A stretch of 55,960 nt of DNA from positions 1-55,960 of IMG/VR virus record IMGVR_UViG_3300029893_000010; one strand, given 5' to 3'. How positions within the stretch are numbered: the stretch's first letter is position 1; each line of letters starts with the position of its first letter. The position numbers and the translations under genes were made by a program. Positions 11,751-44,786 of the stretch are shown one piece after another. The stretch is from a virus (Duplodnaviria; Caudoviricetes). The notes below the pieces were generated by a model. It was not told the origin of the DNA. It searched no databases and worked only from the letters and a program-made list of their open reading frames with translations.

Positions 11751-11915
11751 ATGAGAACAGCAATATTTTTAGGACTTTTGTACGTTGGCGATGCAATAAG
11801 AACCATATCAGGAGTCTCCACAACATCTCTGGCGTACGCAATACTTATCGTAATTGTCCTTGCGGTTTGTATTGTCATGGACATTGGCGATTTTTTTGAA
11901 ATCCAAAAACGATGA
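11751..11915 (+). CDS. Small membrane protein (54 aa)
   Basis: Manual translation MRTAIFLGLLY...; AAGGA RBS; ATGA overlap with the recombinase. Confidence 0.5.
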   Translation: MRTAIFLGLLYVGDAIRTISGVSTTSLAYAILIVIVLAVCIVMDIGDFFEIQKR

Positions 11916-12790
11916 ACATCCAATCCTTCCTTTCCTCTCTCAATCGCTCCCCTCGCACCATCCGTGCCTACGGTTACGCATTGCTGCGTTTCGAGGCCAT
12001 TGTCGGCGCGGATGCCGAGTTGACAGAGGATACCTATACGAAGTTCCTGAAAGCCATCAAGAACTTCTCCCCTTCCACGCAACAGCAGTGGACGACAGCC
12101 GTGCGGACGTTCTACCGTTTCCACCGTGCAGGAAATGATAGCGTTATGAAGGATCTGTCACGGCATTACCTTCGCAGGAAGGGGAAAAACACGCAAGAGC
12201 CCAACATGGAGAGTGTACAAAAGGTCATCGATTATTGCTCCACATTGCAGGGCGATCTGGCTGCCCTGCGCGACAAGGCATTTGTTCTCACCGTGTCGGA
12301 TTCAGGATTGCGCATTTCGGAGGCTTGTGCGTTATTGCGCGGTGATGTGGACTGGAAACGAAAACTGGCGAACATCGTCGGCAAGGGAGAAAAACGGGCA
12401 ACAGTTCACTTCTCCGACAGGGCGATGGATGCCATACAGCAGTATCTTGCAGCCAGATCCGCGGTCGAGCCGGATTCTCGAAAACCATTGTCCTCACAAC
12501 CTCTCTTTGCACGACACGACATCTCCGCCAGCAAGCGTATTCTTCCTGTGCGTTCTGGCGGGATGTGGAAGTCTATAAAATCCAGAATAAAAGAGGCTGG
12601 GGTTGAAAAAACGATCCGTATCCACGATTTCAGGCACTACTTCGTCTCGCGTCTCTACAACGCGACACGAGATATGATGATAACAAAAGAGGGCGCGCGC
12701 CATGAGTCCATCCAGACTACCGCAAGGTATACTCACCTTGACGAGACGTTTGGAGATGTATACAACAAGGTTTTCAATGATGGAGGTTGA
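11912..12790 (+). CDS. XerC/XerD-like tyrosine recombinase (not IntI-type)
   Basis: Catalytic residues in GLRISE, KGEK, HDFRH, RHESIQTTARY. No integron-integrase I2 insertion visible. Confidence 0.9.
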   Translation: MNIQSFLSSLNRSPRTIRAYGYALLRFEAIVGADAELTEDTYTKFLKAIKNFSPSTQQQWTTAVRTFYRFHRAGNDSVMKDLSRHYLRRKGKNTQEPNMESVQKVIDYCSTLQGDLAALRDKAFVLTVSDSGLRISEACALLRGDVDWKRKLANIVGKGEKRATVHFSDRAMDAIQQYLAARSAVEPDSRKPLSSQPLFARHDISASKRILPVRSGGMWKSIKSRIKEAGVEKTIRIHDFRHYFVSRLYNATRDMMITKEGARHESIQTTARYTHLDETFGDVYNKVFNDGG

Positions 12791-13074: not shown

Positions 13075-13484
13075 AAGCAAAAAAAGGTAAACACTTCCCG
13101 ATAGTTGGTGGCAATATTGCAGATGAATGTCCTGTTTGCAGTAGCGTCATCGTTGGCATAGGGCACAATCGCGGTATTTGCCCATCATGTGCACGTGAAG
13201 AAATTATTGCATTGCGCAAAGAAGTAGCACGCCTCCATATTGTGGATAAAGAAAAGGTACGAAAAGAATTGCATGAAAAGGTAAATAAGTGGTTCTCGGA
13301 ACAACCGCAACGCCCTATCGCTCAATTCATGCTTGAAACAATGTGGCAATACATTGAATCCGCCCCAAAAAGCGTGCAGGCGGACGAAACTAACTGCACT
13401 TGCAAAGATGGTTACGGTAGTGTTTTAGATGTTGGTAATTGTGGTCGTTGCGGCAAACCGTTTCGCCGTAACGCAAACCGTTAG
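13071..13484 (+). CDS. Cassette-encoded Cys-rich protein (cassette C1)
   Basis: CPVC, CPSC, CTC and CGRC motifs; the ORF reads through an attC and stops in its core GTTAG. Confidence 0.7.
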   Translation: MKAKKGKHFPIVGGNIADECPVCSSVIVGIGHNRGICPSCAREEIIALRKEVARLHIVDKEKVRKELHEKVNKWFSEQPQRPIAQFMLETMWQYIESAPKSVQADETNCTCKDGYGSVLDVGNCGRCGKPFRRNANR

Positions 13485-13486
13485 GT
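13362..13486 (+). other. attC-like site C1
   Basis: GCCCCAAAAAGCGTGCAGGCGGACGAAAC...GTTTCGCCGTAACGCAAACCGTTAGGT; inverse core is degenerate. Confidence 0.75.
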
Positions 13487-13492
13487 GCTTAT

Positions 13493-13729
13493 ATGCGTAT
13501 TCTTGATCTGTTCGCTGGCAAGGGGTTACAGCGCAAAGATAAAAGCGTTCCGCGTTTGATCGTTGCCCCGCGTGGTCGTCATTCCGCAAAGCCGATTGAA
13601 GCCTATGAAAGAATTGAGAGGCTTTTCGGTAATGTAAGCAGGGTTGAATTATTTGCCCGCAATAATCGTCAAGGCTGGTCAGCGTTTGGTAATCAGGTAG
13701 AAGGTTCTATACACCTTCCAACAAGTTGA
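13493..13729 (+). pseudogene. Chimeric methyltransferase relic: C5-MTase N-terminus fused to MT-A70-like C-terminus
   Basis: MRILDLFAG (C5 motif I) joined to HSAKP...ELFAR...GWSAFGNQ (MT-A70 C-terminal motifs). Ends in a truncated inverse core TTCCAAC. Confidence 0.65.
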
Positions 13730-17396: not shown

Positions 17397-17413
17397 GCTT
17401 CCTCGTTGATGAT

Positions 17414-18136
17414 CTAATATACAGGATAGGTCTTTGGTGGAACAACATGAGAACGGGTGTGGATGACCCCGTTCAGCCACACATTTCCATCTCCATGGAA
17501 TTCCCAATCCATCTCCCTGCCTCCCTCGAGCGGCACGACCCGGCTCTTTTGTATCCAGAACTCGGAAGGTTCCGGTTCTTCGATGGCGGGTTGAAGGATC
17601 GGGATATACACATCCCATGCCCGACCCGGGTTGATGATCTCGGTTCCGTTCCGAAGAATTGCGACAGCCTTCCAGAAACGATACGGTCGAAAGAACCAAT
17701 TATCGATACGGGGGTCAAGCAAATCCGTGTTCTGCTCGTTCGGGTAGGTGAGAACCTTGTAGTGTGTTGCTGTTTCTCCGGTAATGGCAATGATTCCGCC
17801 TCCACACACAACAGGTTCCGCCCGGCCGGTGGTGTATCTGTCATCGGGACGATACGCCCCATCCCCATCCACATTGATCCACATCAGATCGACACTGCGA
17901 GCATACCGAAATCCATCCTCATTGTTGATCTTCTCGATGTATCTCCACCAGTTCGCCTTTACGGAAAACCGGTCTCCTTTTTGCTCTCCATATCCATAAT
18001 TTTGCATACGGATGACATCCGGGAAATATGTGAGTTGAGGAAAACCCGTGCGGTTCGGGTCGTGCTTGACAAGCGCAAGACGAAGGCGTTCACGAACGAT
18101 CCTTTTTCTGGTGTAACGCACCTGGATGGTCTGCAT
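17414..18136 (-). CDS. Hypothetical protein
   Basis: 240-aa ORF in operon with coupled neighbours. Confidence 0.6.
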   Translation of the reverse strand: MQTIQVRYTRKRIVRERLRLALVKHDPNRTGFPQLTYFPDVIRMQNYGYGEQKGDRFSVKANWWRYIEKINNEDGFRYARSVDLMWINVDGDGAYRPDDRYTTGRAEPVVCGGGIIAITGETATHYKVLTYPNEQNTDLLDPRIDNWFFRPYRFWKAVAILRNGTEIINPGRAWDVYIPILQPAIEEPEPSEFWIQKSRVVPLEGGREMDWEFHGDGNVWLNGVIHTRSHVVPPKTYPVY

Positions 18137-18139
18137 TGC

Positions 18140-18565
18140 CTACTCCATGCCGTACGGTTTTCCGTCCACGAATATTTCCCAATCTTTCAGGTCGATCCCG
18201 GTGGGAGATTGGAGATTAATCTGCTTCGCGTCCGGGTCGATCATGAAACCAAAAATAACAGTGGAACCAATTGGAGCAGGAGGCTCCGGCTGTTCTTCAC
18301 CCGCGGGCAGAGGAAGATCACCAGACAACGAAGTGGCAAACCATTCGGGGTGCGGCTTCGTTCCGCGATATTTGACCGCAACATAACGCCCTGGAAACAC
18401 CGAAGTGAGTTGAACCCACATCTCATCTGCGGTGTTCTTGACGATGATGCCTGAGAATTTTTGAAGCGATGAAAGGGTTCCAACCTGGTCAAGGGCAGCC
18501 ACCTGCGCAGCCTTTCGCACGGTGATCTTTGCTCCGGCATTCACCTGAAATTGATAGTCAGTCAT
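18140..18565 (-). CDS. Hypothetical protein (SH3-like N-terminus plus Pro-rich linker)
   Basis: ITVRK...VGTL...W pattern and PEPPAP linker; AGGAG RBS. Confidence 0.55.
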   Translation of the reverse strand: MTDYQFQVNAGAKITVRKAAQVAALDQVGTLSSLQKFSGIIVKNTADEMWVQLTSVFPGRYVAVKYRGTKPHPEWFATSLSGDLPLPAGEEQPEPPAPIGSTVIFGFMIDPDAKQINLQSPTGIDLKDWEIFVDGKPYGME

Positions 18566-18568
18566 GTT

Positions 18569-19480
18569 TCACTCTCCTTTTTTCTGCCACCAGTCTATCG
18601 TTTTTTTCAATCCATCACGCAGGGGTGTGAACTTCATTCCCGTGCATGTTCGGATCGCCCAATTATCCATGTACACGCTTCCGCGTGGGTCATGCGAGTT
18701 TGTGTGTTCCCATTTATAACCCCGAACATCACAAAGATCTGCAATCTCGTCAACAACCTCGTTGACAGAATGGCTTTTTCCGGTCGCAAGGTTCATCGTT
18801 CCGTCCAAATCGTCCACGGTGGCTAATAGGTGTGCATACGCAACATCCTCGACGAACACAAAGTCCCGTTCCTGCCGTCCGTCACCCACGATTTTGAAGT
18901 CTGTTCCGTTGAAAAAATGGGACAATGAGCGGGCGATCACCTGGTTTTCACCAATGGACACCTGTTTCGGACCATAGACATTAGCGTAGCGAAAGATGCA
19001 ATGCGGAACATCGCTTTGCCGGATATACCATTCGGCAGCCAGTTTGCTGATGCCATACGGGCTGTCAGGCATAAGGGTCGAGTGCTCCTTCAATCGCCCC
19101 CAACGCTTCCGACCATACACTGCCGAGGTGCTCGAGAACACGAACCGTCTCACATTGTATCTTTTTGCCATGGCAAGCAGGTTGAGGGTCCCGACGATGT
19201 TGACCCGTGCGTCCTGCGCCGGGTTTTTCTCGGATACGGATATTGCGGACTGTGCTGCAAGATGGTGGATGATGTCCGGCTTGTAGATCGAGAATTTCCG
19301 CTGGAGCAATTGGTTGTCGGCAACATCGCAGATCTCGATGCTTCCGCGAAATCCTTTCAGGTTCTCGGTTCGTCCGGTGACAAAATTGTCGATCACTACG
19401 ACCTTATGACCATATTCTTCCAATGTTTTGGCGACATGGCTTCCGATAAAGCCAGCGCCACCAGTAACCATGATGTTCAT
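18569..19480 (-). CDS. NAD-dependent nucleotide-sugar epimerase/dehydratase (GalE-like SDR)
   Basis: GGAGFIG, SSTSAVYG, YGISK, RYANVYGP, RDFVFVED. Confidence 0.9.
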   Translation of the reverse strand: MNIMVTGGAGFIGSHVAKTLEEYGHKVVVIDNFVTGRTENLKGFRGSIEICDVADNQLLQRKFSIYKPDIIHHLAAQSAISVSEKNPAQDARVNIVGTLNLLAMAKRYNVRRFVFSSTSAVYGRKRWGRLKEHSTLMPDSPYGISKLAAEWYIRQSDVPHCIFRYANVYGPKQVSIGENQVIARSLSHFFNGTDFKIVGDGRQERDFVFVEDVAYAHLLATVDDLDGTMNLATGKSHSVNEVVDEIADLCDVRGYKWEHTNSHDPRGSVYMDNWAIRTCTGMKFTPLRDGLKKTIDWWQKKGE

Positions 19481-19884
19481 AGCGGTTTTCCGTTCGTATC
19501 GTAAGTCATATTTTCCTTCTCGTAAACGATGGTGTCTTTGAACACCTCGAAGCCAAGAGCCTTCAAGCGGACGATCATCAGGTGTGCGGCGAAAATGTTG
19601 CTGGAGTGGACGCGCATGACCGGCTTTTTCTTTCCGAACGGCCAGCCTGTCTTTTCAATATAACGCACGATCTCCATCCCGCAGGTTGGCGTGTCAGGGT
19701 CCTGAAAGTCATGCCCATTCAGGTCGTGGTCAAGAGAGACAAAGTCCCAATCGCTGCTGGACATCTGCTGAAGCGCCTCGGGTACGCAGGTGGCAATCGT
19801 CACATCGTAACCCTTGAGGTTCTCCAGCGCCCAATGAATTCGCTTTGTGCGGTCATCCACGAAGAGGAGTTTCTTCATCATCAC
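19477..19884 (-). CDS. Receiver-like domain protein (cyclic-phosphate-processing REC type)
   Basis: LFVDD, VSLDHDL, VHSSN motifs. Confidence 0.7.
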   Translation of the reverse strand: MMMKKLLFVDDRTKRIHWALENLKGYDVTIATCVPEALQQMSSSDWDFVSLDHDLNGHDFQDPDTPTCGMEIVRYIEKTGWPFGKKKPVMRVHSSNIFAAHLMIVRLKALGFEVFKDTIVYEKENMTYDTNGKPL

Positions 19885-20117
19885 ATCTCACCTCTCATCC
19901 TTGCCATCGTCCGAAGGTAACGACGACGGTGGCGATTTTTCCTTATCTGCCTTTCTATGCTTTCCGGGTCGTTCATGAAATCGAATATATCAGGGTGCAT
20001 TACCGAGAACAATTTCATTCCGTTCTGTGTGGATTCTTTGGCGGCGTCCGCGGCTTTTTTGAAAGCGTTCCCAAGTTCCTGCAATGCCTTCACTAGGGAT
20101 TCCATATCAATTTCCAT
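19881..20117 (-). CDS. Hypothetical protein
   Basis: Overlapping starts and stops within the operon. Confidence 0.5.
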   Translation of the reverse strand: MEIDMESLVKALQELGNAFKKAADAAKESTQNGMKLFSVMHPDIFDFMNDPESIERQIRKNRHRRRYLRTMARMRGEM

Positions 20118-21078
20118 AGATGATTTTACTTCCTTCCATTTCTATTCCAAAATCGACCTTACGCAGACCTGTTTCGCGCAGAATGTCACGGTGGGTTGAC
20201 ACAGGCGCCAAAACGAACATAAATCCGCCTCCTCCGGCGCCAAGAAGTTTTGCGCCCCATCCTCCGCATCGCAAAATGTCCTTATGCCATTTGTCAACAT
20301 TGGGGTTGGTGATTCCGGATGCAAATGTGCGCTTGAGACGCCAGCCCTCATCCATGATGGCTGCAAGATATTTTATGGAAGCACCGCTGACCATGGCTTG
20401 ATGGAATTCCTGCGCAAGTTCTGTCATCTTTTTCATGGACGAAACCGAACGCCCTTCATGGGCATTGAGAGACTGTTCCTTGAGGATTTCGTTCGCAGAA
20501 CGTCCACTGCCTGTCCATAGAAGAAGGGCATGTCTTTCAAAGTCGTCCACCCACTCCTGTGAGACGTTCAACCTGCGTATGCAAACGTTCCGCTTTCCAA
20601 AGGTGATGTAGTTTACGCCACCGTAAGCGGCCGCATATTGATCCTGCTTTCCAACCGATGCGCCGCACTCTGTCTCGACCGTCCATGCCCGTTCCGCAAG
20701 GATGGCGCGCGGGTCAAGATCTTCGGGGTCTTTCAGGAGAGCCTTGAGGAGTCCAACCGTGAAGGAACTTGAAGATCCCAGCCCGCTGCCATGCCCCGGG
20801 ATGTCCGCCACGGACGTGATCTCAAGATGGTTGAATATTTTCGTCATACCAAGCGCGGTACGGACCAGATCGTGCTGGATCTGGTTGCGGCTTTCCACGT
20901 CCTCGGTCTTGGAGTACGAAATGCGAAACCCATCCTCGAAGCGTTTGTTGCATGAAACATACACATATTTCTTGATTGCAAAGTTCACGACCGCGCCAAG
21001 GTGTTTTTCGTAGAACGACGGAATGTCCGTTCCGCCTCCGATCAGGGAGATCCGCAGGGGTGTGCGTGTGATTATCAT
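20107..21078 (-). CDS. hddA: GHMP kinase, D-glycero-alpha-D-manno-heptose-7-phosphate kinase-like
   Basis: RTPLRISLIGGGTD, GSGLGSSS, GKQDQYAAAYGG, GAKLLGAGGGG. Confidence 0.85.
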   Translation of the reverse strand: MIITRTPLRISLIGGGTDIPSFYEKHLGAVVNFAIKKYVYVSCNKRFEDGFRISYSKTEDVESRNQIQHDLVRTALGMTKIFNHLEITSVADIPGHGSGLGSSSSFTVGLLKALLKDPEDLDPRAILAERAWTVETECGASVGKQDQYAAAYGGVNYITFGKRNVCIRRLNVSQEWVDDFERHALLLWTGSGRSANEILKEQSLNAHEGRSVSSMKKMTELAQEFHQAMVSGASIKYLAAIMDEGWRLKRTFASGITNPNVDKWHKDILRCGGWGAKLLGAGGGGFMFVLAPVSTHRDILRETGLRKVDFGIEMEGSKIIYGN

Positions 21079-21767
21079 TGCCAACTCTTTTCTGTGCCAA
21101 TGTGCTTCCAGGCGCCCCACACAGAAATTCCAGCCGGTCTCCATATCCACGGACCCGTATTCAGGCGGTACTGGTCATCCATGTGCAGTTCGATATTCCC
21201 TGGATTCCTGTCCTCCGCAAACCATCCGTATGCTTTTGTAAATCTTGCATGACGGATATAGGGATTGCCAGAGTAGGCATATTGGGTACTTTCCATGTAT
21301 TGCAGGAACATTTCGCCGTTACAGCCTACGGTGTGGACATCGGCTCCAGACGAAAGGATGCGATAGGTGATCGCTCCAACATCCTCCCGATCCGAAAGGA
21401 TGCGCATGTGCCGGGTGATGTCAAGAGTCTCGTCAAGGTTCCAGTCGTCCTCCAGCCAAAGTACATAATCGCTGAATTGATGGCAGATACCGAGCCCTTT
21501 GTTCCAGCCAATCCCGGCGTTGTGAGTATCCTCTTCGCCTTCATTGCGTATCCTGGCACTATGGAATCCGATGATGCGTTCGTTATTCTTCTCTAGCAGT
21601 TCCATGATTGACGCCATGTGATCCTGCGGGGATCCATCGTCCGCAATGTACCATCCGCGATTTTCCTTTGGATAACAAAGGTTTTCGCATGTCGATTTTA
21701 TTGTTTTCAGCGCCACTTCGGTGCGCTTGTATGTTGCAATGCAGATCGCAAGGTTAGGCGATGTCAT
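21075..21767 (-). CDS. GT2-like glycosyltransferase
   Basis: ICIATYKR, IADDGS, WLEDD. Confidence 0.8.
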   Translation of the reverse strand: MTSPNLAICIATYKRTEVALKTIKSTCENLCYPKENRGWYIADDGSPQDHMASIMELLEKNNERIIGFHSARIRNEGEEDTHNAGIGWNKGLGICHQFSDYVLWLEDDWNLDETLDITRHMRILSDREDVGAITYRILSSGADVHTVGCNGEMFLQYMESTQYAYSGNPYIRHARFTKAYGWFAEDRNPGNIELHMDDQYRLNTGPWIWRPAGISVWGAWKHIGTEKSWQ

Positions 21768-22701
21768 TCTTCAACAACTCCGCAAGTTCTTCCCTGGTAA
21801 GCCGCTCTGCGTTCTCGCTCGTGAACGGGATTCCCAATTCTGTTACGACCCTCTGTGTCGTTGTCGGTCGGACGACAAAGAAATCGTCGTGACTGCGAAC
21901 GAACTCAGCCTCCTCGAGAGACACAAGCGTTTCGTGTTTCTTCTCTCCGGGACGCATCGGAACCTGCCGATTGCCATGTTCTCCAATGGTGTAATCGAAT
22001 AACTGCTGGATGGACAATGACTTGAGTTTCGGAACGTAGATCTCACCGCTCTCCAATTCCAAACAATCCTCCACGATCTTTGCGGCGTGTGCAGGGGAAA
22101 GCCAGAAGCGGGTCATCTCCGGGTCTGTGATGGTCGGGGTTTCACCGCGCTCGATCTGCGCCTTCCACACCTCAATGACAGAGGCGGTGGACTCCAGTAC
22201 ATTCCCATACCGGACAAGGTGAAACTTTGTGTGAACAGGCAGGCGCGAGTATTCCTGAAAGATCTTCTCCATCAGATACTTTGTGGCGCCGTAGGCATTG
22301 GCTGGATGACAGGCTTTGTCGGTCGAGATGCCGATCACGCGATCAATTCCATGCTGGATGGCTGCGTTGGCAACATTGATTGACCCTTCTACATTGATAT
22401 GGTATGTGTCAATTGAGTTGTATTCACTTGTTGGGATCTCTTTCACTGCCGCAGCGTGAATAACGATGTCGTGTCCCGCCATTGCGTTATAAAGCGTGGT
22501 GTAGTCCCTTACATCACCAACAACTGTATGTATAAATGGAAAAAACCTTTTTATCCGAGCGTGCTTTGTTGGATCTGTTGAGAAAATGGTTATGTGATTC
22601 CCGTAATCCCTCTCTATACACCTTCTTATTATTTCCGTTCCAAGGGTGCCACACCCTCCAGTCACGAAAAGTCTTGCGTTATTGAAAGCATTTTTACTCA
22701 T
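21754..22701 (-). CDS. UDP-GlcNAc 4,6-dehydratase-like SDR (PseB/FnlA/CapD family)
   Basis: TGGCGTLG, HAAAVK, ISTDKA, YGATK, RYGNVL, RPGEKKHE. Confidence 0.9.
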   Translation of the reverse strand: MSKNAFNNARLFVTGGCGTLGTEIIRRCIERDYGNHITIFSTDPTKHARIKRFFPFIHTVVGDVRDYTTLYNAMAGHDIVIHAAAVKEIPTSEYNSIDTYHINVEGSINVANAAIQHGIDRVIGISTDKACHPANAYGATKYLMEKIFQEYSRLPVHTKFHLVRYGNVLESTASVIEVWKAQIERGETPTITDPEMTRFWLSPAHAAKIVEDCLELESGEIYVPKLKSLSIQQLFDYTIGEHGNRQVPMRPGEKKHETLVSLEEAEFVRSHDDFFVVRPTTTQRVVTELGIPFTSENAERLTREELAELLKNDIA

Positions 22702-22749
22702 TACATTATCCTTTCTTTAATATTATAATAACAGGTGGAAGGAGAAAAA

Positions 22750-23613
22750 ATGACACCTGGTATATATATGTTCACATGCTCTAAAAATGGAGATAGATAC
22801 ATAGGCTCATCGTCAAACATTGAAAACAGAAGGCGGAATCATGTTATTTTACTTAAAAATAAGAAGCATCACAACAAACACTTCCAAAATATATGGAATA
22901 AATACGGAGAAGATTCGTTTTCGTTTGAACTAATTGAGGTGGTTGATGACTTATCAAAGTTAATAGAGAGAGAGCAATTCTGGATTGATTTGTGGAAACC
23001 AGAAATAAATAAGGCAATAAAAGCAGAAAGTGGATTTCTTGGATTGAAACATAAGAAAGAAACAAAGGAGATGTTGAAAAATATTCAAAAAAACAGACTA
23101 AAATCACAGGAGTTAATTGAAGCCTTACGGAGAGCCGCCATAGAACAAAATAAAAAGCACCCAAACCCAATGAAGGGAAGATCTTTATCGGAAGATCAGA
23201 AAAAACATTTACGCGAGATGGGGAAAAGGCAATTCGAGAGCGAAGAATCGAGAAAAAAGCATTCTGACTTGATGAAAAAATGGATGACACCAGAAATGCG
23301 AAAACGAATAAGTAAAGCGAAAATAGGAAAGAAGCAATCCGAAGAAACAAAGAAAAAAAGGAGTAAGTCTCTTCAAAGAGCCTGGAATAATTATACAAAT
23401 GAACAAAAAGAAAACAGAATAAATAAAACAAAAGAAAAAGTAGTGTCAGCGAGGGCGAAATTATACGAAGGATTTGTTTCTCCGAGCGGAGAAGTGTACG
23501 AAAATGTTTATAACATGGCTGAGTTTTGCAGAATTCACGGATTAACTCATTCAAGTATGATACGCCTTGATAAAGGATTTTCAAAAACGCATAAGGGATG
23601 GAAAAAAATATAG
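22750..23613 (+). CDS. Free-standing GIY-YIG homing endonuclease with NUMOD3-like repeats
   Basis: GIY...YIGSS...R..H; K(H/Q)SEET-type repeats; AT-rich; antisense to the surrounding operon. Confidence 0.9.
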   Translation: MTPGIYMFTCSKNGDRYIGSSSNIENRRRNHVILLKNKKHHNKHFQNIWNKYGEDSFSFELIEVVDDLSKLIEREQFWIDLWKPEINKAIKAESGFLGLKHKKETKEMLKNIQKNRLKSQELIEALRRAAIEQNKKHPNPMKGRSLSEDQKKHLREMGKRQFESEESRKKHSDLMKKWMTPEMRKRISKAKIGKKQSEETKKKRSKSLQRAWNNYTNEQKENRINKTKEKVVSARAKLYEGFVSPSGEVYENVYNMAEFCRIHGLTHSSMIRLDKGFSKTHKGWKKI

Positions 23614-27143: not shown

Positions 27144-27317
27144 TTACGGTCTTTGCCTTGAAATGTTTATGACATCTTTTTGGTATTGAACGGTCAATAC
27201 CATTGCGTCTTTATGGGAGAATCCGCTTTCTATCAAAGCATCATAATAAGCACGAACCAAAGTAGCGAACTGGCTGACACCTTGAACAAGTTTTTCAAAA
27301 TCTGTAAGTTCTTCCAC
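27144..27317 (-). CDS. Small hypothetical protein (57 aa)
   Basis: GTG start with GGAGG RBS; MEELTDFEKL...YYDALIESGFS. Confidence 0.6.
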   Translation of the reverse strand: MEELTDFEKLVQGVSQFATLVRAYYDALIESGFSHKDAMVLTVQYQKDVINISRQRP

Positions 27318-27343
27318 TTTTGATACCTCCGCCAGTATGGGGC

Positions 27344-27451
27344 TGGCTACGGGCTTGCGCTACCTGCCGTATTTTGTGGATTTGCGCTGGGTAGTGGATG
27401 ACGACTTTTGAACCGTAGACTTGGCGATGTCAGGTGGACGCTTTGTTTGGC
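27344..27451 (-). other. attC A7 (terminal, non-canonical core GTAGCCA)
   Basis: GCCAAACAAAGCGTCCACCTGAC...GCAGGTAGCGCAAGCCCGTAGCC. Confidence 0.65.
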
Positions 27452-27560
27452 GGCGCTCTGGAATAAAAGATACCACCAAAAACAACAAGACTGAAACACA
27501 AAGACCAATTGCCGACTCAATAATTTTTACTTGTCTGTAATTCTCAAGGAACCAATCCAT
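27360..27560 (-). CDS. Cassette A7 small membrane protein
   Basis: One TM segment; AAAGG RBS; stop lies in the attC L' box. Confidence 0.65.
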   Translation of the reverse strand: MDWFLENYRQVKIIESAIGLCVSVLLFLVVSFIPERRQTKRPPDIAKSTVQKSSSTTQRKSTKYGR

Positions 27561-27592
27561 CGTTTTACCTTTCTCTCGGATGGCAAGGAAGC

Positions 27593-27727
27593 CGCCAACG
27601 GTTATGCTTTACCTGCGAATGCCGCAGTTTTCGCATTCCAACATTTCTGGCGTATCCAACGTACCATCCCATTTGAAAACATGAGGAAGCCCAGTGCGGC
27701 ATTTGTCAGGTGCAAGCGGTGTTAGAA
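27593..27727 (-). other. attC A6
   Basis: TTCTAACACCGCTTGCACCTGACAAATGCCGCA...TGCGGCATTCGCAGGTAAAGCATAACCGTTGGCG. Confidence 0.85.
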
Positions 27728-27866
27728 GGCGTTCTTGCTGGCAAGTTTTACACTGGCAATCTCTACCATGTAGGTGATTCGGATGCGTGAAGTATTCGCC
27801 ACATTTAGCGCAAAACCTGTTTTCAGGAAAGACAACATCAGGCAAGGTCATAAAATAATGTTTCAT
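27609..27866 (-). CDS. Cassette A6 second ORF, Cys/His-rich
   Basis: MKHYFM start, GAGG RBS, several CxxC; stop in L'. Confidence 0.65.
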   Translation of the reverse strand: MKHYFMTLPDVVFPENRFCAKCGEYFTHPNHLHGRDCQCKTCQQERLLTPLAPDKCRTGLPHVFKWDGTLDTPEMLECENCGIRR

Positions 27867-28066
27867 TTTTTTACCTCGTATTCGTAACAATCTTGGCATA
27901 CACCCTTTTTATACACAACACCTTCACCGCAAACAGAGCAAATAGCAGATTTCTTACAATTTTCACACTTATACACGCGCAAAACTACATTGCTATCAAT
28001 TACCTTCATGTAGAAATTTAGTTTTTCGTGGCAAGACGAGCATGTTAGTATTATTGACGTTTGCAT
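27863..28066 (-). CDS. Cassette A6 first ORF, zinc-finger protein
   Basis: Four CxxC motifs; ATGA overlap with the next ORF. Confidence 0.65.
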   Translation of the reverse strand: MQTSIILTCSSCHEKLNFYMKVIDSNVVLRVYKCENCKKSAICSVCGEGVVYKKGVCQDCYEYEVKK

Positions 28067-28073
28067 GATAGCC

Positions 28074-28190
28074 TTCTAACGGTTTGCGTTACCTGCGCTC
28101 ATTCTTCGCCCGAACACTCATGGCAAAGAGGGATAATTTCATCGCCACAACCTGTGCAGTAAATAGCGTCAGGTACACGCTTTGTTAGAA
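28074..28190 (-). other. attC A5
   Basis: TTCTAACAAAGCGTGTACCTGACGC...GCGCAGGTAACGCAAACCGTTAGAA. Confidence 0.9.
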
Positions 28191-28395
28191 GGCTTATTTC
28201 ACCTTCTGATACTACGCGAGTAAGACCATAACTAGGCTGATCCCATCTGAAGTGAATGCGAGTATGCCAGTTAGTGAGATTGCCAGCCGCATCCCAAGTT
28301 GCGTCAATATAATTTTCAAGGACATAACCTACTTCGGCGTTATCGTCTATGACTTCATCGCCGCGATTGAATGGGGGAAGTTGTTTATTTTGCAT
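28099..28395 (-). CDS. Cassette A5 hypothetical protein
   Basis: FNRGDEV KOW/SH3-like start; the C-terminal CTGC...CHEC is encoded in the attC loop. Confidence 0.7.
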   Translation of the reverse strand: MQNKQLPPFNRGDEVIDDNAEVGYVLENYIDATWDAAGNLTNWHTRIHFRWDQPSYGLTRVVSEGEISLLTKRVPDAIYCTGCGDEIIPLCHECSGEE

Positions 28396-28402
28396 GATAG
28401 CC

Positions 28403-28495
28403 TTCTAACGTACTTGCGTTACTGGTTTGCGGGTTGCGCCACGAGTGCCGAATTTGCGGACGAGTCTAGCAAATCCAGTGCACGCGTAGTTGTGC
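28403..28495 (-). other. attC A4
   Basis: GCACAACTACGCGTGCACTGGATTTGC...GCAAACCAGTAACGCAAGTACGTTAGAA. Confidence 0.85.
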
Positions 28496-28711
28496 CGCGC
28501 GTTTGTTGGCAAGTTCAACAGCCGCGCCATCGTGCGGGGCTGTAATCACAAACGATTTTCCTTGCGCCATGTGGACGGTATATTTTGAGTTACGCCCGAC
28601 GCGGCGTCGCCCAAATGAACGCCTGATATAAGACCCATCGGCAGCGGTGCAAACACGTTGCGCCAATGCCTGCTCAATTCGCTGACCTGTTTCTGTTGGC
28701 AAAGTAAACAT
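28466..28711 (-). CDS. Cassette A4 hypothetical protein
   Basis: MFTLPTE with GGAG RBS just after the core site. Confidence 0.6.
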   Translation of the reverse strand: MFTLPTETGQRIEQALAQRVCTAADGSYIRRSFGRRRVGRNSKYTVHMAQGKSFVITAPHDGAAVELANKRAAQLRVHWIC

Positions 28712-28726
28712 ATTTCTCCAAGAGCG

Positions 28727-28855
28727 GTACAACGGCTTACATTACCCGCTTATGGGCGGGACGAGACGAACTACGGGAGGAGTAAAATCTTCGGGCGTAG
28801 TCCACTGCATGGGAGCCGCAGACTCCCCATAAGTCGGGTGCATGTTTTGTTGGGC
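28727..28855 (-). other. attC A3
   Basis: GCCCAACAAAACATGCACCCGACTTATGGG...CCCATAAGCGGGTAATGTAAGCCGTTGTAC. Confidence 0.9.
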
Positions 28856-28969
28856 GGCTTGCCTGCCTGCCAGATACGCTGCGTGCGCGATTTCACGCAA
28901 ACCGACATCAACATTTTCCATCAGGCGAAATTTATTGATAGTCCACCATGTTTCAAATTCTTTATCCAT
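28742..28969 (-). CDS. Cassette A3 hypothetical protein
   Basis: MDKEFETWW...AYLAG; AAGGAG RBS; stop in L'. Confidence 0.7.
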   Translation of the reverse strand: MDKEFETWWTINKFRLMENVDVGLREIAHAAYLAGRQAAQQNMHPTYGESAAPMQWTTPEDFTPPVVRLVPPISG

Positions 28970-28994
28970 AAGACTCCTTCGTTGAGCGAGAGCC

Positions 28995-29107
28995 GCCCAA
29001 CGGTTTGCGTTACCCGCTTTCGGCAGGCAAGGCATTTTCAACTTTCACGAATTCGGGCAGGCTCAAAACGCCAGCCTTCAAAGAGTCGGGTACACGCGGT
29101 GTTAGGC
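28995..29107 (-). other. attC A2
   Basis: GCCTAACACCGCGTGTACCCGAC...GCGGGTAACGCAAACCGTTGGGC. Confidence 0.9.
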
Positions 29108-29669
29108 AACCTGCCCATTGCGCCGCAAATGCGTTTGCGATACCCTGATACGTGCGTGACCGCTCATGTGAACGGTTTTTACCAGGTGACATTTTATGTA
29201 TTCTTTGCTCTCTACCTTCCACGATATTTGTACTCTCCAAAAATGGCAAACCTTTTAGCCAAAGGCATGTAGCTTTTGTTTCACCATGCCCGAACTGATA
29301 CGGTTGTATTACTTGATCGTATTTTCTTCCAATGATTTCAACCGCGTATTTATGGGGTATAGGGTTTTCAACTGCAATCTTTGTGATAGGTGCGTTCAGA
29401 ATGAGTTTGAAAAACTCGGCTGCTTCCCGCATTTCCCGCCAAAGGTTTCTTTCTGCGAGCCAACGAACGCCCGAATTACATAACCTTGTGCAGGGAGGAT
29501 GTGCAACCATCAAATCCCACCCGCTGTATAGAATATCTCGGATGTCACCCTGATAGTGATTGCCTGGTATTTCCGTAGGCAATAAATCACACGACCAGGA
29601 TTCATGACCGAGCGCGGAGAACGCTTCACGAACCACACCACTGAACTCACAAGCTACAAGGATACGCAT
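29010..29669 (-). CDS. Cassette A2 phage-type DNA cytosine methyltransferase-like protein
   Basis: LVACEFSG, SCDL, AHPPCT, VENP, RSRTYQGIA..A.QW motifs. Confidence 0.8.
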   Translation of the reverse strand: MRILVACEFSGVVREAFSALGHESWSCDLLPTEIPGNHYQGDIRDILYSGWDLMVAHPPCTRLCNSGVRWLAERNLWREMREAAEFFKLILNAPITKIAVENPIPHKYAVEIIGRKYDQVIQPYQFGHGETKATCLWLKGLPFLESTNIVEGREQRIHKMSPGKNRSHERSRTYQGIANAFAAQWAGCLTPRVPDSLKAGVLSLPEFVKVENALPAESG

Positions 29670-29675
29670 AGGGTT

Positions 29676-29801
29676 GCCTAACGGTTTGCGTTAGCGGCGA
29701 GTGCCGCACTCTGAACAAATATCGGGATACGTTTGCTGGTCGGTGTACGCTGGCTTGGCGTGACAATGTGGGCACTCGTCCGCCTGCACGCTTTGTTCTA
29801 C
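29676..29801 (-). other. attC A1
   Basis: GTAGAACAAAGCGTGCAGGCGGACGAGTGCC...GGCACTCGCCGCTAACGCAAACCGTTAGGC. Confidence 0.9.
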
Positions 29802-29996
29802 CGCCTTCCTGCTATTGCGCATTACAACACGAGCGGCAAGGCGACCGATTGCAAGCAACTTCTGACGCTCAACCTTATCAGCCAGCGTAGATAATTCATT
29901 TGCCAATTTGCTGTTTTCGTAGCCATCATTCGCGCGGATGAAAAAAGCCGCTTTGCGTGCTGCTTCAATCAATTGATTTAATTCTTCGTTTGCCAT
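29691..29996 (-). CDS. Cassette A1 hypothetical protein
   Basis: AAGGAG RBS; CPHC...CSEC encoded in the attC; stop in L'. Confidence 0.7.
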   Translation of the reverse strand: MANEELNQLIEAARKAAFFIRANDGYENSKLANELSTLADKVERQKLLAIGRLAARVVMRNSRKAVEQSVQADECPHCHAKPAYTDQQTYPDICSECGTRR

Positions 29997-30019
29997 ATCA
30001 CTCCTTTTGCCAAGAGGCG

Positions 30020-30048
30020 GTAGAACTAGTGTTTAACCAGAATGTACA
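30020..30048 (-). other. attI-like site of array A
   Basis: TGTACATTCTGGTTAAACACTAG|TTCTAC; closely matches 43620-43648; TAAA-N5-GTT as in attI1. Confidence 0.7.
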
Positions 30049-30282
30049 TTATATTTCCAAGTCCTCTATCCGAACCTTGAGCATATCCAAGGCTTCCTGC
30101 GGTACCGATGTGTATCCAAGATGTCTGAAATAGTGGATGATGGCGTGGCGGGAAACATCCGTCGGGTTAATCGTAGTTGACAGAATTCCTTTATTCTTAT
30201 CGGATGCGATCTTTTCAAGAATCCAGTCAAATGGATCCCCATTTTGAATTCTCTTTCCTTGATTTTTGTGTATCTTCTTCAT
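30049..30282 (-). CDS. Hypothetical protein flanked by dif-like sites
   Basis: 77-aa ORF directly downstream of a promoter. Confidence 0.6.
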   Translation of the reverse strand: MKKIHKNQGKRIQNGDPFDWILEKIASDKNKGILSTTINPTDVSRHAIIHYFRHLGYTSVPQEALDMLKVRIEDLEI

Positions 30283-35292: not shown

Positions 35293-35965
35293 ATTGCAAC
35301 CTCTTTAGTTTTTTTGCGTCGTCGCCAATAACGTTCATGCTCGCTGCCAGTAATTTCGCCGCCAGTTCCATGGCGTCCTCGGCGGTGATGATGGCTTTGA
35401 TCTCTTTCAAAACCTTCATCTCGCTTTCCACCATTTTCCGCCGTACGTCCAGTGCGCCAAATATCTGCTCCCATGCCTTGTAGTCATGGTACACATCCTC
35501 AAAGGCGCTGTCGATCTGGACACGCAATATCATCTCTTCGTCTGTGCGCCCGGACGCCTGCGCTTCCCGATACTCCTGCCACAGTCCGTACAGTTTTCCA
35601 ACCCTGTCCGGTGCCTCTCCAATGTCCACACGCTCCAACAACTGCCTGACGCGCGTATCCACAATATCTATGGCGGCTCGGTTCGACAGGACACTTCCGT
35701 TATTTTGAACCTCCCTGTACTTCGACGCCAACCTGGTGATCTGGAACGATGAAGAGGCTCCACTGCTCATTGTGCCCGACCCATAATAATTGTTCTCAGG
35801 ATTCGGTCCACCATGGAACTTGCAACGCGCGTACCCAGCCACAGGATAGTTCCCGCAACGAAGATCAACGCCGCAATTCGGACAATTTCTCTCCCGCTCG
35901 GGATTGTCGGTGTTGCAAGACTTACACTTCTTTTTGATGTATGTGCATTTTGGTCTGCCATTCAT
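35183..35965 (-). CDS. terS: Terminase small subunit (zinc ribbon plus HGG motif)
   Basis: CKSC...CPNC...RCKFHGG; directly upstream of TerL. Confidence 0.7.
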   Translation of the reverse strand: MNGRPKCTYIKKKCKSCNTDNPERERNCPNCGVDLRCGNYPVAGYARCKFHGGPNPENNYYGSGTMSSGASSSFQITRLASKYREVQNNGSVLSNRAAIDIVDTRVRQLLERVDIGEAPDRVGKLYGLWQEYREAQASGRTDEEMILRVQIDSAFEDVYHDYKAWEQIFGALDVRRKMVESEMKVLKEIKAIITAEDAMELAAKLLAASMNVIGDDAKKLKRLQYEYSRIIGDRSDLAGEEDRGDDWGTDEEERGEEGSG

Positions 35966-36504
35966 GCCATCCCCTGTAACTGCCGTACCACCGCATGTGC
36001 CACCATCAGGTGCAGATCCTCCTGCACCCGGATGTCGTCCGCCATCACATGCACCAGCGCGTTCAGCCCAATATTGTTGATCTCACTGGACAGCGACGGT
36101 CCAGTCATCCCAACCGACAGGATGCCCTCGTCAACCCCATACGACAACGTACGAAGAACGTTCTCAGAATTTCCTGAACACGAGATGCCCACCAATCCGT
36201 CCTTCGGACGAACCAGACCACGCACCAGATCCGAGAACATGTTCCGCCACCCATTGTCATTCCCATACGCGAATACAGAACTGCTCATATCCCCCACGCA
36301 CATTGCCTTCACCTTCGCCACCTTCACAAGGTCGTTCGCCAGATGACTCGCTGTGGCATGACTCCCTCCGTTCCCGAACAGGTACACCGTGCCTCCGTTC
36401 CGCTTTACCACTTCCAACATCATCACCATCTGGTCGATCTCGTCCATGTTCAACAATGTCATCGCTTCGCTGACTTCCGATAGATGCTTCCTGATCTGTG
36501 TCAT
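35962..36504 (-). CDS. gmhA: Phosphoheptose isomerase (SIS domain)
   Basis: FGNGGS, AYGND, GISCSGNSENV, VQEDLH. Confidence 0.85.
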   Translation of the reverse strand: MTQIRKHLSEVSEAMTLLNMDEIDQMVMMLEVVKRNGGTVYLFGNGGSHATASHLANDLVKVAKVKAMCVGDMSSSVFAYGNDNGWRNMFSDLVRGLVRPKDGLVGISCSGNSENVLRTLSYGVDEGILSVGMTGPSLSSEINNIGLNALVHVMADDIRVQEDLHLMVAHAVVRQLQGMA

Positions 36505-37684: not shown

Positions 37685-37787
37685 TTTTATCCCCTGCTCG
37701 TGACTATCACCCGCGTGATAGTCATCATGGAAGGGATAAACCCGACCCGCCGAAAGGCGCAAACCTAACCCCGAAAGGATAAAGATC

Positions 37788-38174
37788 ATGTTTCAAAAGA
37801 ACTACAAAAAAGCCCTACGCGCAGAGATTATCGCCCGCATCAACTTTGACGGCTATCTCTCCACCGACGAACAGCCAAAGACCGCCGACGAAAAAATCAT
37901 CCTGCTTGTCAACACCGCCAAGGCAGAAGTTGGTCACGAATTCGAGCGACATGGAACCCATGCCGGCCTCAAATATTGGTTGTCTGGTCTCCCGTCTGTG
38001 ATCGACCTGCCGGTTTATAACGGCGAAGTTGTAGAATTTGCCGAGAAAATCGGGTCCGTTGTCAATCCGACCGAAAAAGAAGCCGAAAAAATCACCGAGA
38101 ATTTCTACGGCTTTATGGCTTCGGCTATTTACCAGATGTACTATGAAGCGACCCGCCGAATGTCTCGCAAATAA
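37788..38174 (+). CDS. Early hypothetical protein
   Basis: GAAAGGA RBS; WLSGLPSVID motif. Confidence 0.7.
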   Translation: MFQKNYKKALRAEIIARINFDGYLSTDEQPKTADEKIILLVNTAKAEVGHEFERHGTHAGLKYWLSGLPSVIDLPVYNGEVVEFAEKIGSVVNPTEKEAEKITENFYGFMASAIYQMYYEATRRMSRK

Positions 38175-38275
38175 TTTGCCCCGTGCTAGTGCCTATAATC
38201 TCCCGCCGATTGTAGGCATTATGGACCGGACAAACATCCGCCACTAACCCCTAACCCCGAAAGGAAAAAAAGATC

Positions 38276-38554
38276 ATGAGAGACCGAGTCAAGCAATCCG
38301 ACCTTGAAGCCCTTGTATACACGATCAACCAACTGACAGGATCGCCTACCGAATACTCAACCAAGCAATCAGACGGCACGCATAAGACCAACGTTGGCCA
38401 CTACTGCCTTTCATACGCCTATGGTGGTGTGAATCTTCATCGCGTCGTGTCTGACGGCGGCGGCGTCACCACCCCTTTGGGCGGCGGTTATCACACCAAG
38501 CGTGAACTTTACTACCGCCTGCAATCCTTCATCAACGGATTGACCGCCCGATAA
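38276..38554 (+). CDS. Early hypothetical protein
   Basis: GAAAGGA RBS; AYGGV.L...GG motif. Confidence 0.7.
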   Translation: MRDRVKQSDLEALVYTINQLTGSPTEYSTKQSDGTHKTNVGHYCLSYAYGGVNLHRVVSDGGGVTTPLGGGYHTKRELYYRLQSFINGLTAR

Positions 38555-38646
38555 TCTGACAGGATAACCCGCCCGGCGCAAGATCGCGCACTCGAAAAGC
38601 CGGGCGGCATTCCTGAATTATTCCCAAACCCGAAAGGATAACCACC

Positions 38647-38865
38647 ATGACCACCCAGACCACCAAAGTTATTTTCAAACGCTGCCCCGAAGGGGATGTG
38701 ATCGCCCTCTTCCCCACCCTGCCGGGCACTCGTGACCCGTACTCGACCTGCATGTCCTACATGCACACCGGACAACACGGTCACGCATCCACCGACCTCT
38801 TCACCCTCCCGCCCGCACAACCCGCCGAATACGCCGACCTCGCCGCACGCAAGAACGCCCTCTAA
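38647..38865 (+). CDS. Early hypothetical protein
   Basis: GAAAGGA RBS; VIALFP...SYMHTGQHG. Confidence 0.7.
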   Translation: MTTQTTKVIFKRCPEGDVIALFPTLPGTRDPYSTCMSYMHTGQHGHASTDLFTLPPAQPAEYADLAARKNAL

Positions 38866-43674: not shown

Positions 43675-44199
43675 ATGCCCGACACAATCGAAGATATTGA
43701 AGCCGATATTATGTGGCTTGAAGAAGCAATCGGCGAAAATGAAGAAAGGCTTGAAGAACTTACCAGCGAAAATTACAAGCCAGAAGAAAATGCGGATGAT
43801 GAATACCGTGAAAAAGACATCGAAGAACTCACCGAAGGTATTGCGGAATACCGCCGTGAGATTGCAAAGTGTCAAAGAAAAATCGAAAGGCTGAAACGCG
43901 CCGAGCGTGAACGCCAAAATAAAAAGTGGGGTGAGCAAAACCACGATGATTATCGTTGGCTTGCTATCCTCACAGAAGAAGTAGGTGAATTGGCACAGGC
44001 TATTTTGCATGATGAGTTTGGCGGTTCGCACGCTGGCACTGCTAAAACTGAACTCGTTCACGTCGCCGCTGTTGCGGTTCAATGGTTGGAGTGCATGGAA
44101 AGGCGGCAACTAACACAGCGTGCACCGGACGCTACGCCACAGCCGCCATTGCGTGGCGAGGTATGGCGTAGCGATGAAGAATTGCCAACAGGCGTCTAG
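43675..44199 (+). CDS. Cassette B1: acidic coiled coil fused to a MazG-like NTP pyrophosphohydrolase domain
   Basis: ERERQNKKWG...ILTEEVGELAQA...ELVHVAAVA. Confidence 0.7.
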   Translation: MPDTIEDIEADIMWLEEAIGENEERLEELTSENYKPEENADDEYREKDIEELTEGIAEYRREIAKCQRKIERLKRAERERQNKKWGEQNHDDYRWLAILTEEVGELAQAILHDEFGGSHAGTAKTELVHVAAVAVQWLECMERRQLTQRAPDATPQPPLRGEVWRSDEELPTGV

Positions 44200-44226
44200 T
44201 CGCGCCAGTAACGCAAACCGTTAGCC
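44108..44226 (+). other. attC B1
   Basis: AACTAACACAGCGTGCACCGGACGC...GCGCCAGTAACGCAAACCGTTAGCC. Confidence 0.85.
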
Positions 44227-44252
44227 TGCTCCGCGCTTTTGAAAGGTGTCTT

Positions 44253-44771
44253 ATGGAAAAAGACGAACACGAAAGATTAGTAAATCTTGCAATGCAAGTA
44301 GTTAAAGGATTAATGGAAATGCCGCCTGTAAATATAAATTGCAAATGTGGTCATAGTGCTTTTGACCATTCCGACGATACTGGATGCGACGCAAAGGGAT
44401 GCTCCTGCTCAGAAGGGTTTGAGGAGGTCGCCAGCGGTGCGTTGACAAAACTTGAAACAGAGATTGACAATTTACACAGAGAAATCAATCTACTCAAAGC
44501 AACAAATCATCGCCTACGCACAGAGAAGGATAACGACTACGATGCCGCGCTTGAATGGGCGGCGGATTGGGTCACTGGGGCACAGTTATCTGGTCACAGT
44601 GATGAAGTCCAAGAATATGCTCGCAACATGGCAATGTCCATTCGGGCAGCAAAGCGCGGGCTAACAAAGCGTGCACTGGACGGGGCTTGCGAGTCTTGCA
44701 AATTAGAACTCACCCCGTCATGTCCAATCCGCACTGGTAATGGCTGTGATTTATTCCAGCCCCGCCAGTAA
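44253..44771 (+). CDS. Cassette B2 Cys/His-rich protein
   Basis: CKCGH...H...C...CSC.F motif; stop in L'. Confidence 0.7.
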   Translation: MEKDEHERLVNLAMQVVKGLMEMPPVNINCKCGHSAFDHSDDTGCDAKGCSCSEGFEEVASGALTKLETEIDNLHREINLLKATNHRLRTEKDNDYDAALEWAADWVTGAQLSGHSDEVQEYARNMAMSIRAAKRGLTKRALDGACESCKLELTPSCPIRTGNGCDLFQPRQ

Positions 44772-44786
44772 CGCAATCCGTTCGGC
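44659..44786 (+). other. attC B2
   Basis: GGCTAACAAAGCGTGCACTGGACGGGG...CCCCGCCAGTAACGCAATCCGTTCGGC. Confidence 0.9.

Follow-up and report, generated by a model that had tools for sequence, protein, structure and literature searches.

Cassette open reading frames of a tailed phage extend into integron-type attC sites and often end on a stop codon in the L' box

In its textbook form an integron cassette is a gene followed by a non-coding hairpin, the attC site. Canonical integron exchange takes place at R' and keeps each gene with its own attC, and the extrahelical bases of attC sites are usually T and G. The sites described here come from a 55,960-bp stretch of DNA (referred to throughout as the window), which is the whole of the IMG/VR virus entry IMGVR_UViG_3300029893_000010 (Caudoviricetes; completeness estimate 96%). 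It contains ten attC-type sites, and at each of them the open reading frame (ORF) of the cassette runs into the site. The closest systems in print are summarised below from passages of the papers cited. Most resistance cassettes have a gene whose stop codon overlaps the attC, so that the ORF touches the site and the overlap is a stop codon at its start; extending translation up to the attC gives two-fold higher downstream expression, and untranslated stretches before the attC lower it (PMC11511950). In attI1, ORF-11, ORF-17 and ORF-18 are short leader peptides that translate the site, with a core-site stop that couples translation to the next cassette (PMC8876359). Designed attC sites with loops of 3–21 nt have been set in frame in genes, inside lacZ or between the halves of an enzyme, where they encode a linker, and module shuffling was proposed for them (Nivina et al. 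2020, PMC7439510). Sites and clusters of attC sites lacking integron integrases (CALINs) have been described on phage genomes (Qi et al. 2023, PMC9892861), and integrons have been reported in Chloroflexi (PMC4889954).

The window shares with the phage sites of Qi et al. the presence of attC on a phage genome without an integron integrase. With chromosomal integrons it shares the imperfect R''/L''...L'/R' palindrome, in A5 and A6 with unpaired bases on the bottom strand, an upstream ORF in the same orientation, the arrangement in arrays and a sequence family that also occurs beside the IntI of Anaerolineales; it differs from them in that the phage has no IntI by the curated model and has sites in three separate positions between phage genes. 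Unlike resistance cassettes, the phage cassettes have 25–40 codons inside the site, with the stop at its far end. Compared with the synthetic constructs, the phage sites occur naturally and are always C-terminal, with the stop in L', and their loops, tens of nucleotides long, would encode a domain. The attI1 peptides are leaders in attI, whereas the phage case concerns the C-termini of cassette proteins in attC.

The ten sites form groups of seven, two and one, as stretches of 84–126 nt whose two ends align to one consensus. Sites A1–A7 stand head to tail on the minus strand (27345-29801) between the portal gene and the capsid genes, B1 and B2 lie on the plus strand (44108-44786), and C1 is found at 13362-13486. 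The 5' box consists of a YTAAC inverse core and an inner box (R''/L''), and the 3' box of GTAAC, a spacer and the GTTAG core (L'/R'). A 17-mer of the 3' box is present in six copies in the window, against 0.11 expected. All the elements of attC architecture (inverse core, core, inner boxes and imperfect palindrome) can be seen in the ten-site alignment, with R'' degenerate in A1 (GAAC) and C1. When folded as single-stranded DNA, sites A1, A2, A3, A5, A6 and B2 form a hairpin closed by the boxes, and in the two sites looked at for this purpose (A5 and A6) the bottom-strand fold has single unpaired bases in the 3' arm, T and C. The possibility that the repeats are a conserved protein motif was rejected, because conservation runs past the stop codon, bacterial arrays have the same boxes in non-coding DNA and all three frames of the box are in use.

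Bacterial genomes were scanned with the two-box pattern, and at least 120 stretches were found. By their record titles these are overwhelmingly metagenome-assembled genomes of Anaerolineales and other Chloroflexota, often with several sites per 8 kb. An IntI scoring above the TIGR02249 cut-off (445 bits vs 265) was present in 4 of the 5 site-bearing genomes tested and in none of 14 control genomes, at a distance of ~1–11 kb from the array in the genomes examined. In genome G005 it is ~1 kb from the array, and in G001 it stands at 33.5 kb with arrays at 1 to 32 kb. Because the same site family stands beside IntI in Anaerolineales arrays, the sites of the window are taken as true integron attC sites. 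By sequence, then, the ten repeats belong to the same integron-type attC family as the sites of chromosomal integrons in Anaerolineales (Chloroflexota), and the hosts of the phage are probably members of this bacterial group.

All ten sites of the window are entered by an ORF with 54–196 open codons upstream, as an earlier note on this DNA had claimed; no point of its description that was compared with the sequence proved wrong. Its count of six ORFs whose stop codon is the L' TAA or TAG itself (A1, A2, A3, A6, A7 and B2) was reproduced site by site. The ORFs of A5 and B1 end 10 and 12 nt before L', respectively, that of C1 ends on the R' TAG and that of A4 ends inside the site. Among the ORFs that reach the L' region 6 of 7 stop there (binomial test against one third, p = 0.007, with the sites assumed to be independent). 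The recurrent C-terminal peptides to which the note drew attention are real and represent translations of the 5' box in two reading frames out of three. Where the frame would turn the inverse core into TAA, the T is replaced (A1, A3 and C1); the GAAC of A1 in place of TAAC thus removes an in-frame stop. The Cys-rich interiors that had been listed for A1, A5, A6, B2 and C1 were also seen, as two Cys pairs in A1, A5 and C1, as CxxC with two more Cys in B2, and as one Cys with CxxC in A6. In the A2 methyltransferase, the last 29 residues are encoded by the attC and the family match ends at residue 190. The A3 protein likely starts at an internal ATG near 28970. An alternative genetic code was considered, and nothing in the data called for one.

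The note had proposed the recurrent peptides as a handle for finding more phage cassettes, and such a handle proved serviceable: the two-box DNA pattern recovered 86 loci on viral contigs, and protein searches recovered tails. A scan of metagenomes added one locus, L213. For the classification of stops, three mismatches were allowed in each box. The viral set (IMG/VR sites plus L213) comprised 250 evaluable sites of 260, and the bacterial set 262 of 274 among the matches listed, a scope that applies to all bacterial counts below. At the bacterial sites, there is no ORF in 44 cases, and the ORF stops before R'' in 149, on the R'' TAA in 25 and in the L'' box in 2; the others stop in the interior (13), on the L' TAA (19), in R' (1) or beyond the site (9). 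The corresponding viral counts are 1 without an ORF, 26 before R'', 31 on the R'' TAA, 8 in the L'' box, 44 in the interior, 4 within 12 nt before L', 128 on the L' TAA, 4 in R' and 4 beyond. Hence 218 of 262 bacterial sites have an ORF that ends at or before the inverse core or have none, which agrees with what the note gave as established for classical cassettes. The ORF runs into the site in 192 of 250 viral cases against 44 of 262 bacterial ones (Fisher p = 1e-44), and it stops on the L' TAA in 128 of 250 against 19 of 262 (Fisher p = 8e-30). The L' region is reached by 136 viral ORFs, of which 128 are in the frame of the TAA; one third would be expected (p = 8e-51), and the excess indicates that the length of the site goes with the frame of the gene. 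These p-values assume independent sites, and the 128 sites correspond to 64 loci, 120 upstream-gene clusters and 76 interior clusters.

A stricter set of sites gave the same picture from the side of the interior. In viral sites, the interior is open in the gene frame in 65 of 82 cases, in the other sense frames in 67 of 164 and in antisense frames in 103 of 246; bacterial interiors show no such difference (gene frame 128 of 181, other sense frames 238 of 362). Extension of ORFs into the site is general for this attC family on viral contigs. The next ORF starts 20–49 nt past the L' stop in 83 of 125 cases. On L213, a 3.5-kb metagenome contig with seven sites (L213:1-3522), the ORFs stop on the L' TAA at five sites and on the R'' TAA at one, so that both arrangements coexist in one array.

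In every set, whole sites folded more stably than shuffled sequences, with mean z-scores of -3.6 for bacterial sites, -2.6 for viral sites and -2.0 for the window. For the interior alone, the values were -1.1, -0.09 and 0.0, respectively, so the interior is self-complementary in bacteria only. The arms beside the boxes behave differently from the centre. In the 128 viral sites that are translated, pairing of the variable 20-nt arms with their own partners reaches -18.1 kcal/mol compared with -11.6 for foreign arms (p = 5e-41), and bacterial arms are similar (-19.9 with their own partners vs -14.2 with those of other sites). Pairing of the 6 nt flanking R'' and R' showed no excess (3.59 vs 3.58 with shuffled partners); since this stretch of R' is part of the following cassette, the comparison says nothing either way. 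Boxes and stem are thus used doubly, being both paired and coding, and the loop is plain coding sequence. The dual coding put forward in the earlier note holds for the boxes and the stem, the arms of which covary, and does not hold for the centre of the site, which folds no better than shuffled sequence. Compaction, which it suggested as the cause, is a plausible candidate.

We consider it probable, on the whole, that the phage cassette ORFs are fused in frame to their attC sites, with a stem that is paired and coding at once, a centre that encodes a C-terminal extension and an L' TAA that acts as the stop codon. In such an arrangement the 5' arm (R''/L'') would encode a short linker, with the sequence LT[KQP]R..D or QSVQ.. 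depending on the frame, and the arms of the stem would serve base pairing and coding simultaneously. The variable centre would have given up its self-complementarity to become an ordinary coding sequence for the extension, and selection would hold its length such that the L' TAA stays in frame. Several benefits can be imagined. A fixed TAA would give each cassette its own stop wherever it is inserted. Ribosomes reading as far as L', to within 20–50 nt of the next start, might keep the hairpin of the mRNA melted and leave accessible the purine-rich R' box that directly precedes this start, and an open hairpin might avoid polarity in the phage operon in which array A is embedded. About 100 nt could be saved per cassette, and the tail might add a small domain.

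Whole cassettes of this type are found in other surroundings. In sequencing run X4, cassette A2 occurs alone (28994-29686) at 93% identity, and in run X6 cassette A6 occurs alone (27595-28080) at 100% identity, both with foreign flanks. Together with 15 pairs of sites that share only downstream sequence, they show cassettes bounded at R' in differing contexts, as is characteristic of attC. These cassettes bear directly on the idea that the sites are dead relics, i.e. decayed attC that no longer recombine and have been overgrown by ORFs. Such decay would be compatible with the missing canonical fold of A4, A7 and C1, with a phage that has no IntI by the curated model and with interiors that have lost their self-complementarity. 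It is nonetheless highly improbable in view of conserved boxes, covarying stems, the R'-bounded cassettes at 93–100% identity in other contexts and the downstream-only pairs. As a separate observation, each of thirteen runs (X4–X16, from rock, aquatic, wastewater and sludge samples, plus four without an organism on record) contains about a quarter of the sampled words of array A (window 27300-30050), so that individual cassettes, whole or in part, have a far wider distribution than the phage itself. Of these runs, only those with contigs available entered the comparisons. Joints with sides of ~20 nt in the run contigs are cross-matches of the conserved boxes and were not counted as excision events.

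The translated interiors were compared with known proteins and with each other. The pattern CxxC..CxxC occurs in the gene frame at 13 of 82 viral sites, in other sense frames at 2 of 164 and in antisense frames at 5 of 246; a looser Cys motif is found at 32 of 220 entered sites. Zinc-finger tails are predicted for a share of the sites between about one sixth and one third, and the other tails look, by our reading of the translations, basic and disordered or contain long hydrophobic stretches. Six tails from five contigs, 33–48% identical to the first sequence of their alignment, have W-x-C-x2-C...C-x2-C in common. A profile of these six matched solved NZF/RanBP2 fingers over the full domain, with an E-value of 1.8e-5 for Npl4 (1nj3) and values up to 1e-3 for HOIP, TAB2, ZRANB2 and Nup153. 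The likeness, a W-x-C-x2-C...N...C-x2-C-x2-PR pattern, applies to tails of related cassettes, whereas the tails of the window itself are other kinds of Cys4 ribbon. A tail of the A6 type on a different N-domain keeps KWDGTL and ECExCG. Homologues of the A1 N-domain have Cys-rich tails in ~17 of ~20 tail types by our count. The homologues do not stop short of the attC, and where a tail is shared its cysteines persist; the outcome that the note named as refuting was thus not seen.

Several points weigh against the reading of the sites as in-frame, domain-adding parts of the genes. Translation through the attC is predicted from ORFs, and stop autonomy, melting of the hairpin and compaction are benefits that we infer. 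The contrast between viral and bacterial sites depends on the IMG/VR calls of contigs as viral, and the bacterial counts cover the matches listed. Sites A4, A7 and C1 have no canonical hairpin fold and may be dead. Pfam matches of the tails (zinc-ribbon, RanBP2-type and DnaJ-type) all lie below the gathering cut-offs, single tails scoring 18.6–18.8 bits against PF00641, for which the cut-off is 27. In an AlphaFold model of the A1 protein from its single sequence, two helices are confident and the tail is not, with a predicted local distance difference test score of 55–75. Differences between homologous interiors fall on the three codon positions as 34, 25 and 38, a weak signal from few independent pairs, and amount in total to 20 synonymous and 42 non-synonymous codon differences, again from too few independent pairs to decide. 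Tails descended from the standard bacterial interior change mostly non-synonymously (in one pair, 2 synonymous vs 12 non-synonymous), and many tails may thus be neutral. In the small sample provided by the B2 tail and its homologue on L062, there are 6 synonymous and 3 non-synonymous differences in interior codons.

The non-synonymous changes in standard-interior tails also speak for neutral run-on, by which an ORF merely continues into the attC once its own stop is lost, with selection only for a stop within the cassette and with tails that are idle. The A2 methyltransferase and the B1 protein match their families up to the box only, so that the tail is an add-on, all three frames of the box are in use, and the A2 cassette of run X4 is more conserved in its attC than in its gene (among the differences listed, 2 are in the attC and the others in the gene). 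We nevertheless regard idle tails as an unlikely explanation, since the zinc-finger motifs are a feature of the gene frame in particular, tails have a match in a domain family of solved structure, the A1 N-domain is nearly always accompanied by a Cys-rich tail and the A6-type motifs persist on another N-domain.

Genes and tails were found in many combinations. The N-domain of A5 is present in 12 proteins, including that of the window, with residues 1–70 mostly invariant and ten different tails after the box, of which one is NZF-like and one resembles the A6 tail of the window; the A5 tail itself is present on four unrelated N-termini. The A1 N-domain has 33 homologues (46–60 of 67 residues identical), whose tails, of ~20 other kinds and for the most part Cys-rich, do not include that of A1. 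Conversely, the A1 tail (27–28 of 28 residues) is found on 20 unrelated proteins, always in the same tail frame. In these 20 proteins (P0051-P0070) the box in front of the A1 tail is read as QSVQ[AS]D in 12 cases and as LT[KE]RAAD or PTKRAAD in 8. Back-reading of codons indicates that the two box frames differ by one base of the L'' box, close to or at the position that we assign to the hairpin's unpaired base, and through this one-base difference the A1 tail stays in frame behind either box frame. Aligned as DNA, L213 and the window agree at ~94% over the upstream R', the A5 gene and the 5' box and have unrelated interiors; the break comes right after the L'' stem, and homology returns at the L' stem and is gone again after GTTAG. 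Contigs of other runs contain the A5 attC without its gene, and the A4 and A5 genes without their interiors (for A4, both X3 and X6). Of the site pairs compared at 80% identity, 70 share the interior only, 15 the downstream sequence only, 9 the upstream gene only and 3 gene and interior, and none share interior and downstream sequence. Gene and tail thus reassort at the 5' box, and whole cassettes at R'. The earlier note was right about the double use of boxes and stem, too narrow about the cause, and did not include this reassortment of tails.

Shared genes with differing interiors are unlike what exchange at R' predicts, and shared interiors on different genes are normal within an attC family. 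Candidate routes for the swap of gene and tail are homologous exchange via the two boxes of 25–30 nt and top-strand recombination. It might be argued that tail shuffling is what the boxes are for, as in-frame joints at which C-terminal modules such as zinc fingers and membrane anchors are swapped among small proteins. The many partners of the A5 and A1 N-domains and tails, the break directly after the L'' stem with homology back at the L' stem, the run contigs with a gene minus its interior or an interior minus its gene, and the excess of pairs sharing only the upstream gene (9 vs 3) would all fit. Exchange at R', however, does not part a gene from its attC, so another process would be required; single crossovers at the 5' box would give pairs sharing interior and downstream gene, of which there are none; similar interiors on different genes are what one attC family normally shows; and the reassortment may be a by-product of two 25–30-nt homologies in phages. 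Tail shuffling as a purpose is distinctly unlikely. Somewhat less doubtful, although still more unlikely than not, is a two-level system in Chloroflexota phages, in which the attC loop would be a portable, exon-like module (a zinc finger, a membrane anchor or a basic tail) swapped among small phage proteins via the boxes and whole cassettes would be swapped at R'; it might make use of top-strand attC recombination or of the Xer-like recombinase of the phage. If it exists, it would be a natural counterpart of the synthetic in-frame attC idea.

By the curated model, the Xer-like tyrosine recombinase is not an integron integrase. Against TIGR02249 it reached 52.7 bits (cut-off 265), with only its C-terminal part matched. 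A complete integron calls for an integrase with a specific extra domain; the sole tyrosine recombinase found on the phage does not qualify. Because no tyrosine recombinase passes the IntI model, the phage arrays are CALIN-like. On two viral contigs, homologues of this recombinase (52% and 38% identity) adjoin arrays of several sites (L010:7167-8048 and L016:2016-2918). From its sequence and position, it could be the phage's own cassette recombinase.

Stop codons that overlap attC, attC in phages and synthetic in-frame attC are already published, and natural full embedding was not found in print. The passages of PMC9892861 that were searched contain nothing on ORFs reading through attC and do not mention Chloroflexota. 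In a literature that largely excluded subscription journals and supplements, there was no report of natural cassette ORFs that pass through the whole attC to an L' stop, or of loops that encode a domain. The phage cassettes regularly put the hairpin inside the gene, and an in-frame embedding of attC that has so far only been engineered is shown in nature. The boxes provide a simple sequence handle for finding phage cassettes, and annotation that expects attC between genes may miss such genes or place their ends wrongly. The separate reassortment of gene, attC loop and neighbour in these data bears on the attachment of attC to its gene and on the diversification of small phage proteins.

The coordinates of the sites, of the ORFs that enter them and of other features of the window are collected in Table 1.

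Table 1. Positions of attC-type sites, cassette ORFs and other features in the 55,960-bp window
Feature	Coordinates	Strand	Remarks
Site A1	29676..29801	-	Hairpin, z -1.7; R'' is GAAC, not TAAC
Site A2	28995..29107	-	Consensus alignment; hairpin
Site A3	28727..28855	-	Consensus alignment; hairpin
Site A4	28404..28495	-	Short; no canonical fold, z +0.5
Site A5	28074..28190	-	Hairpin with two unpaired bottom-strand bases, z -2.3
Site A6	27594..27727	-	Hairpin, z -2.8
Site A7	27345..27451	-	Last of the array; R' and L' degenerate; z +0.5
Site B1	44108..44226	+	Consensus alignment
Site B2	44659..44786	+	Hairpin, z -2.4
Site C1	13362..13486	+	R'' degenerate; no canonical fold, z -0.1
ORF A1, 101 aa	29691..29996	-	Helical N-domain and attC-coded CxxC...CxxC tail; stop L' TAA
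ORF A2, DNA methyltransferase, 219 aa	29010..29669	-	phrog_757, 1e-59, residues 1-190; stop L' TAA
ORF A3	28742..29041	-	Stop L' TAA
ORF A4, 88 aa	28466..28732	-	Reads through 5' box; TAG stop inside site
ORF A5, 98 aa	28099..28395	-	CxxC...CxxC tail; TGA stop 10 nt before L'
ORF A6, 96 aa	27609..27899	-	Stop L' TAA
67-aa Cys-rich ORF	27863-28066		Upstream of ORF A6, same cassette
ORF A7, 66 aa	27360..27560	-	TAG stop at L' position
ORF B1, 174 aa	43675..44199	+	Family match ends at residue 149-150; TAG stop 12 nt before L'
ORF B2, 172 aa	44253..44771	+	Cys-rich tail; stop L' TAA
ORF C1, 137 aa	13071..13484	+	CxC...CxxC tail; stop R' TAG
Xer-like tyrosine recombinase	11912..12790	+	Phage_integrase, 1e-29; just upstream of C1
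78-aa ORF	13493-13729	+	Directly 3' of the R' of C1
Sugar-chemistry block	14580-22701	-
GIY-YIG homing endonuclease gene	22735-23613	+
Large terminase ORF, 841 aa	32767-35292	-
SIS-domain protein	35962-36504	-
27-nt motif, three copies	37764-37790, 38250-38276, 38623-38649
Repeats at the record ends	6-437, 55498-55929

The window has the gene content of a tailed phage: genes were recognised for a tape-measure protein and tail proteins, for the large terminase, for replication and for several DNA methyltransferases. No close relative turned up among cultured phages in a nucleotide search, in which part of a methyltransferase gene was the sole match, and no close phage relative was found on viral contigs queried with the portal protein and with the A5 protein. 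A 498-aa ORF without a family match is taken here for the major capsid gene.

The 78-aa ORF next to C1 matches only the C-terminal end of MT-A70 (positions 125-172 of 172 in the Pfam model and 231-297 of 329 in phrog_359) and by this match would be either a truncated gene or a cassette-borne fragment. Within the large terminase, residues 431-478 match LAGLIDADG_3 between the terminase parts; the insert may be an intein or an inserted homing endonuclease. The sugar-chemistry block encodes a 1039-aa multi-domain glycosyltransferase, two NAD-dependent epimerase/dehydratases, a GHMP kinase and a cREC receiver-like protein, and the SIS-domain protein lies farther along. Between the sugar genes and the 498-aa ORF lies the GIY-YIG homing endonuclease gene, isolated on the plus strand. 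Each end of the record contains two overlapping copies of a 300-nt repeat, spaced by 132 nt and 67–79% alike across the ends, which may be terminal repeats or an array cut by assembly. Two of the three copies of the 27-nt motif end in ATG at or just before small plus-strand ORFs, and the motif may be a shared leader or a regulatory element.

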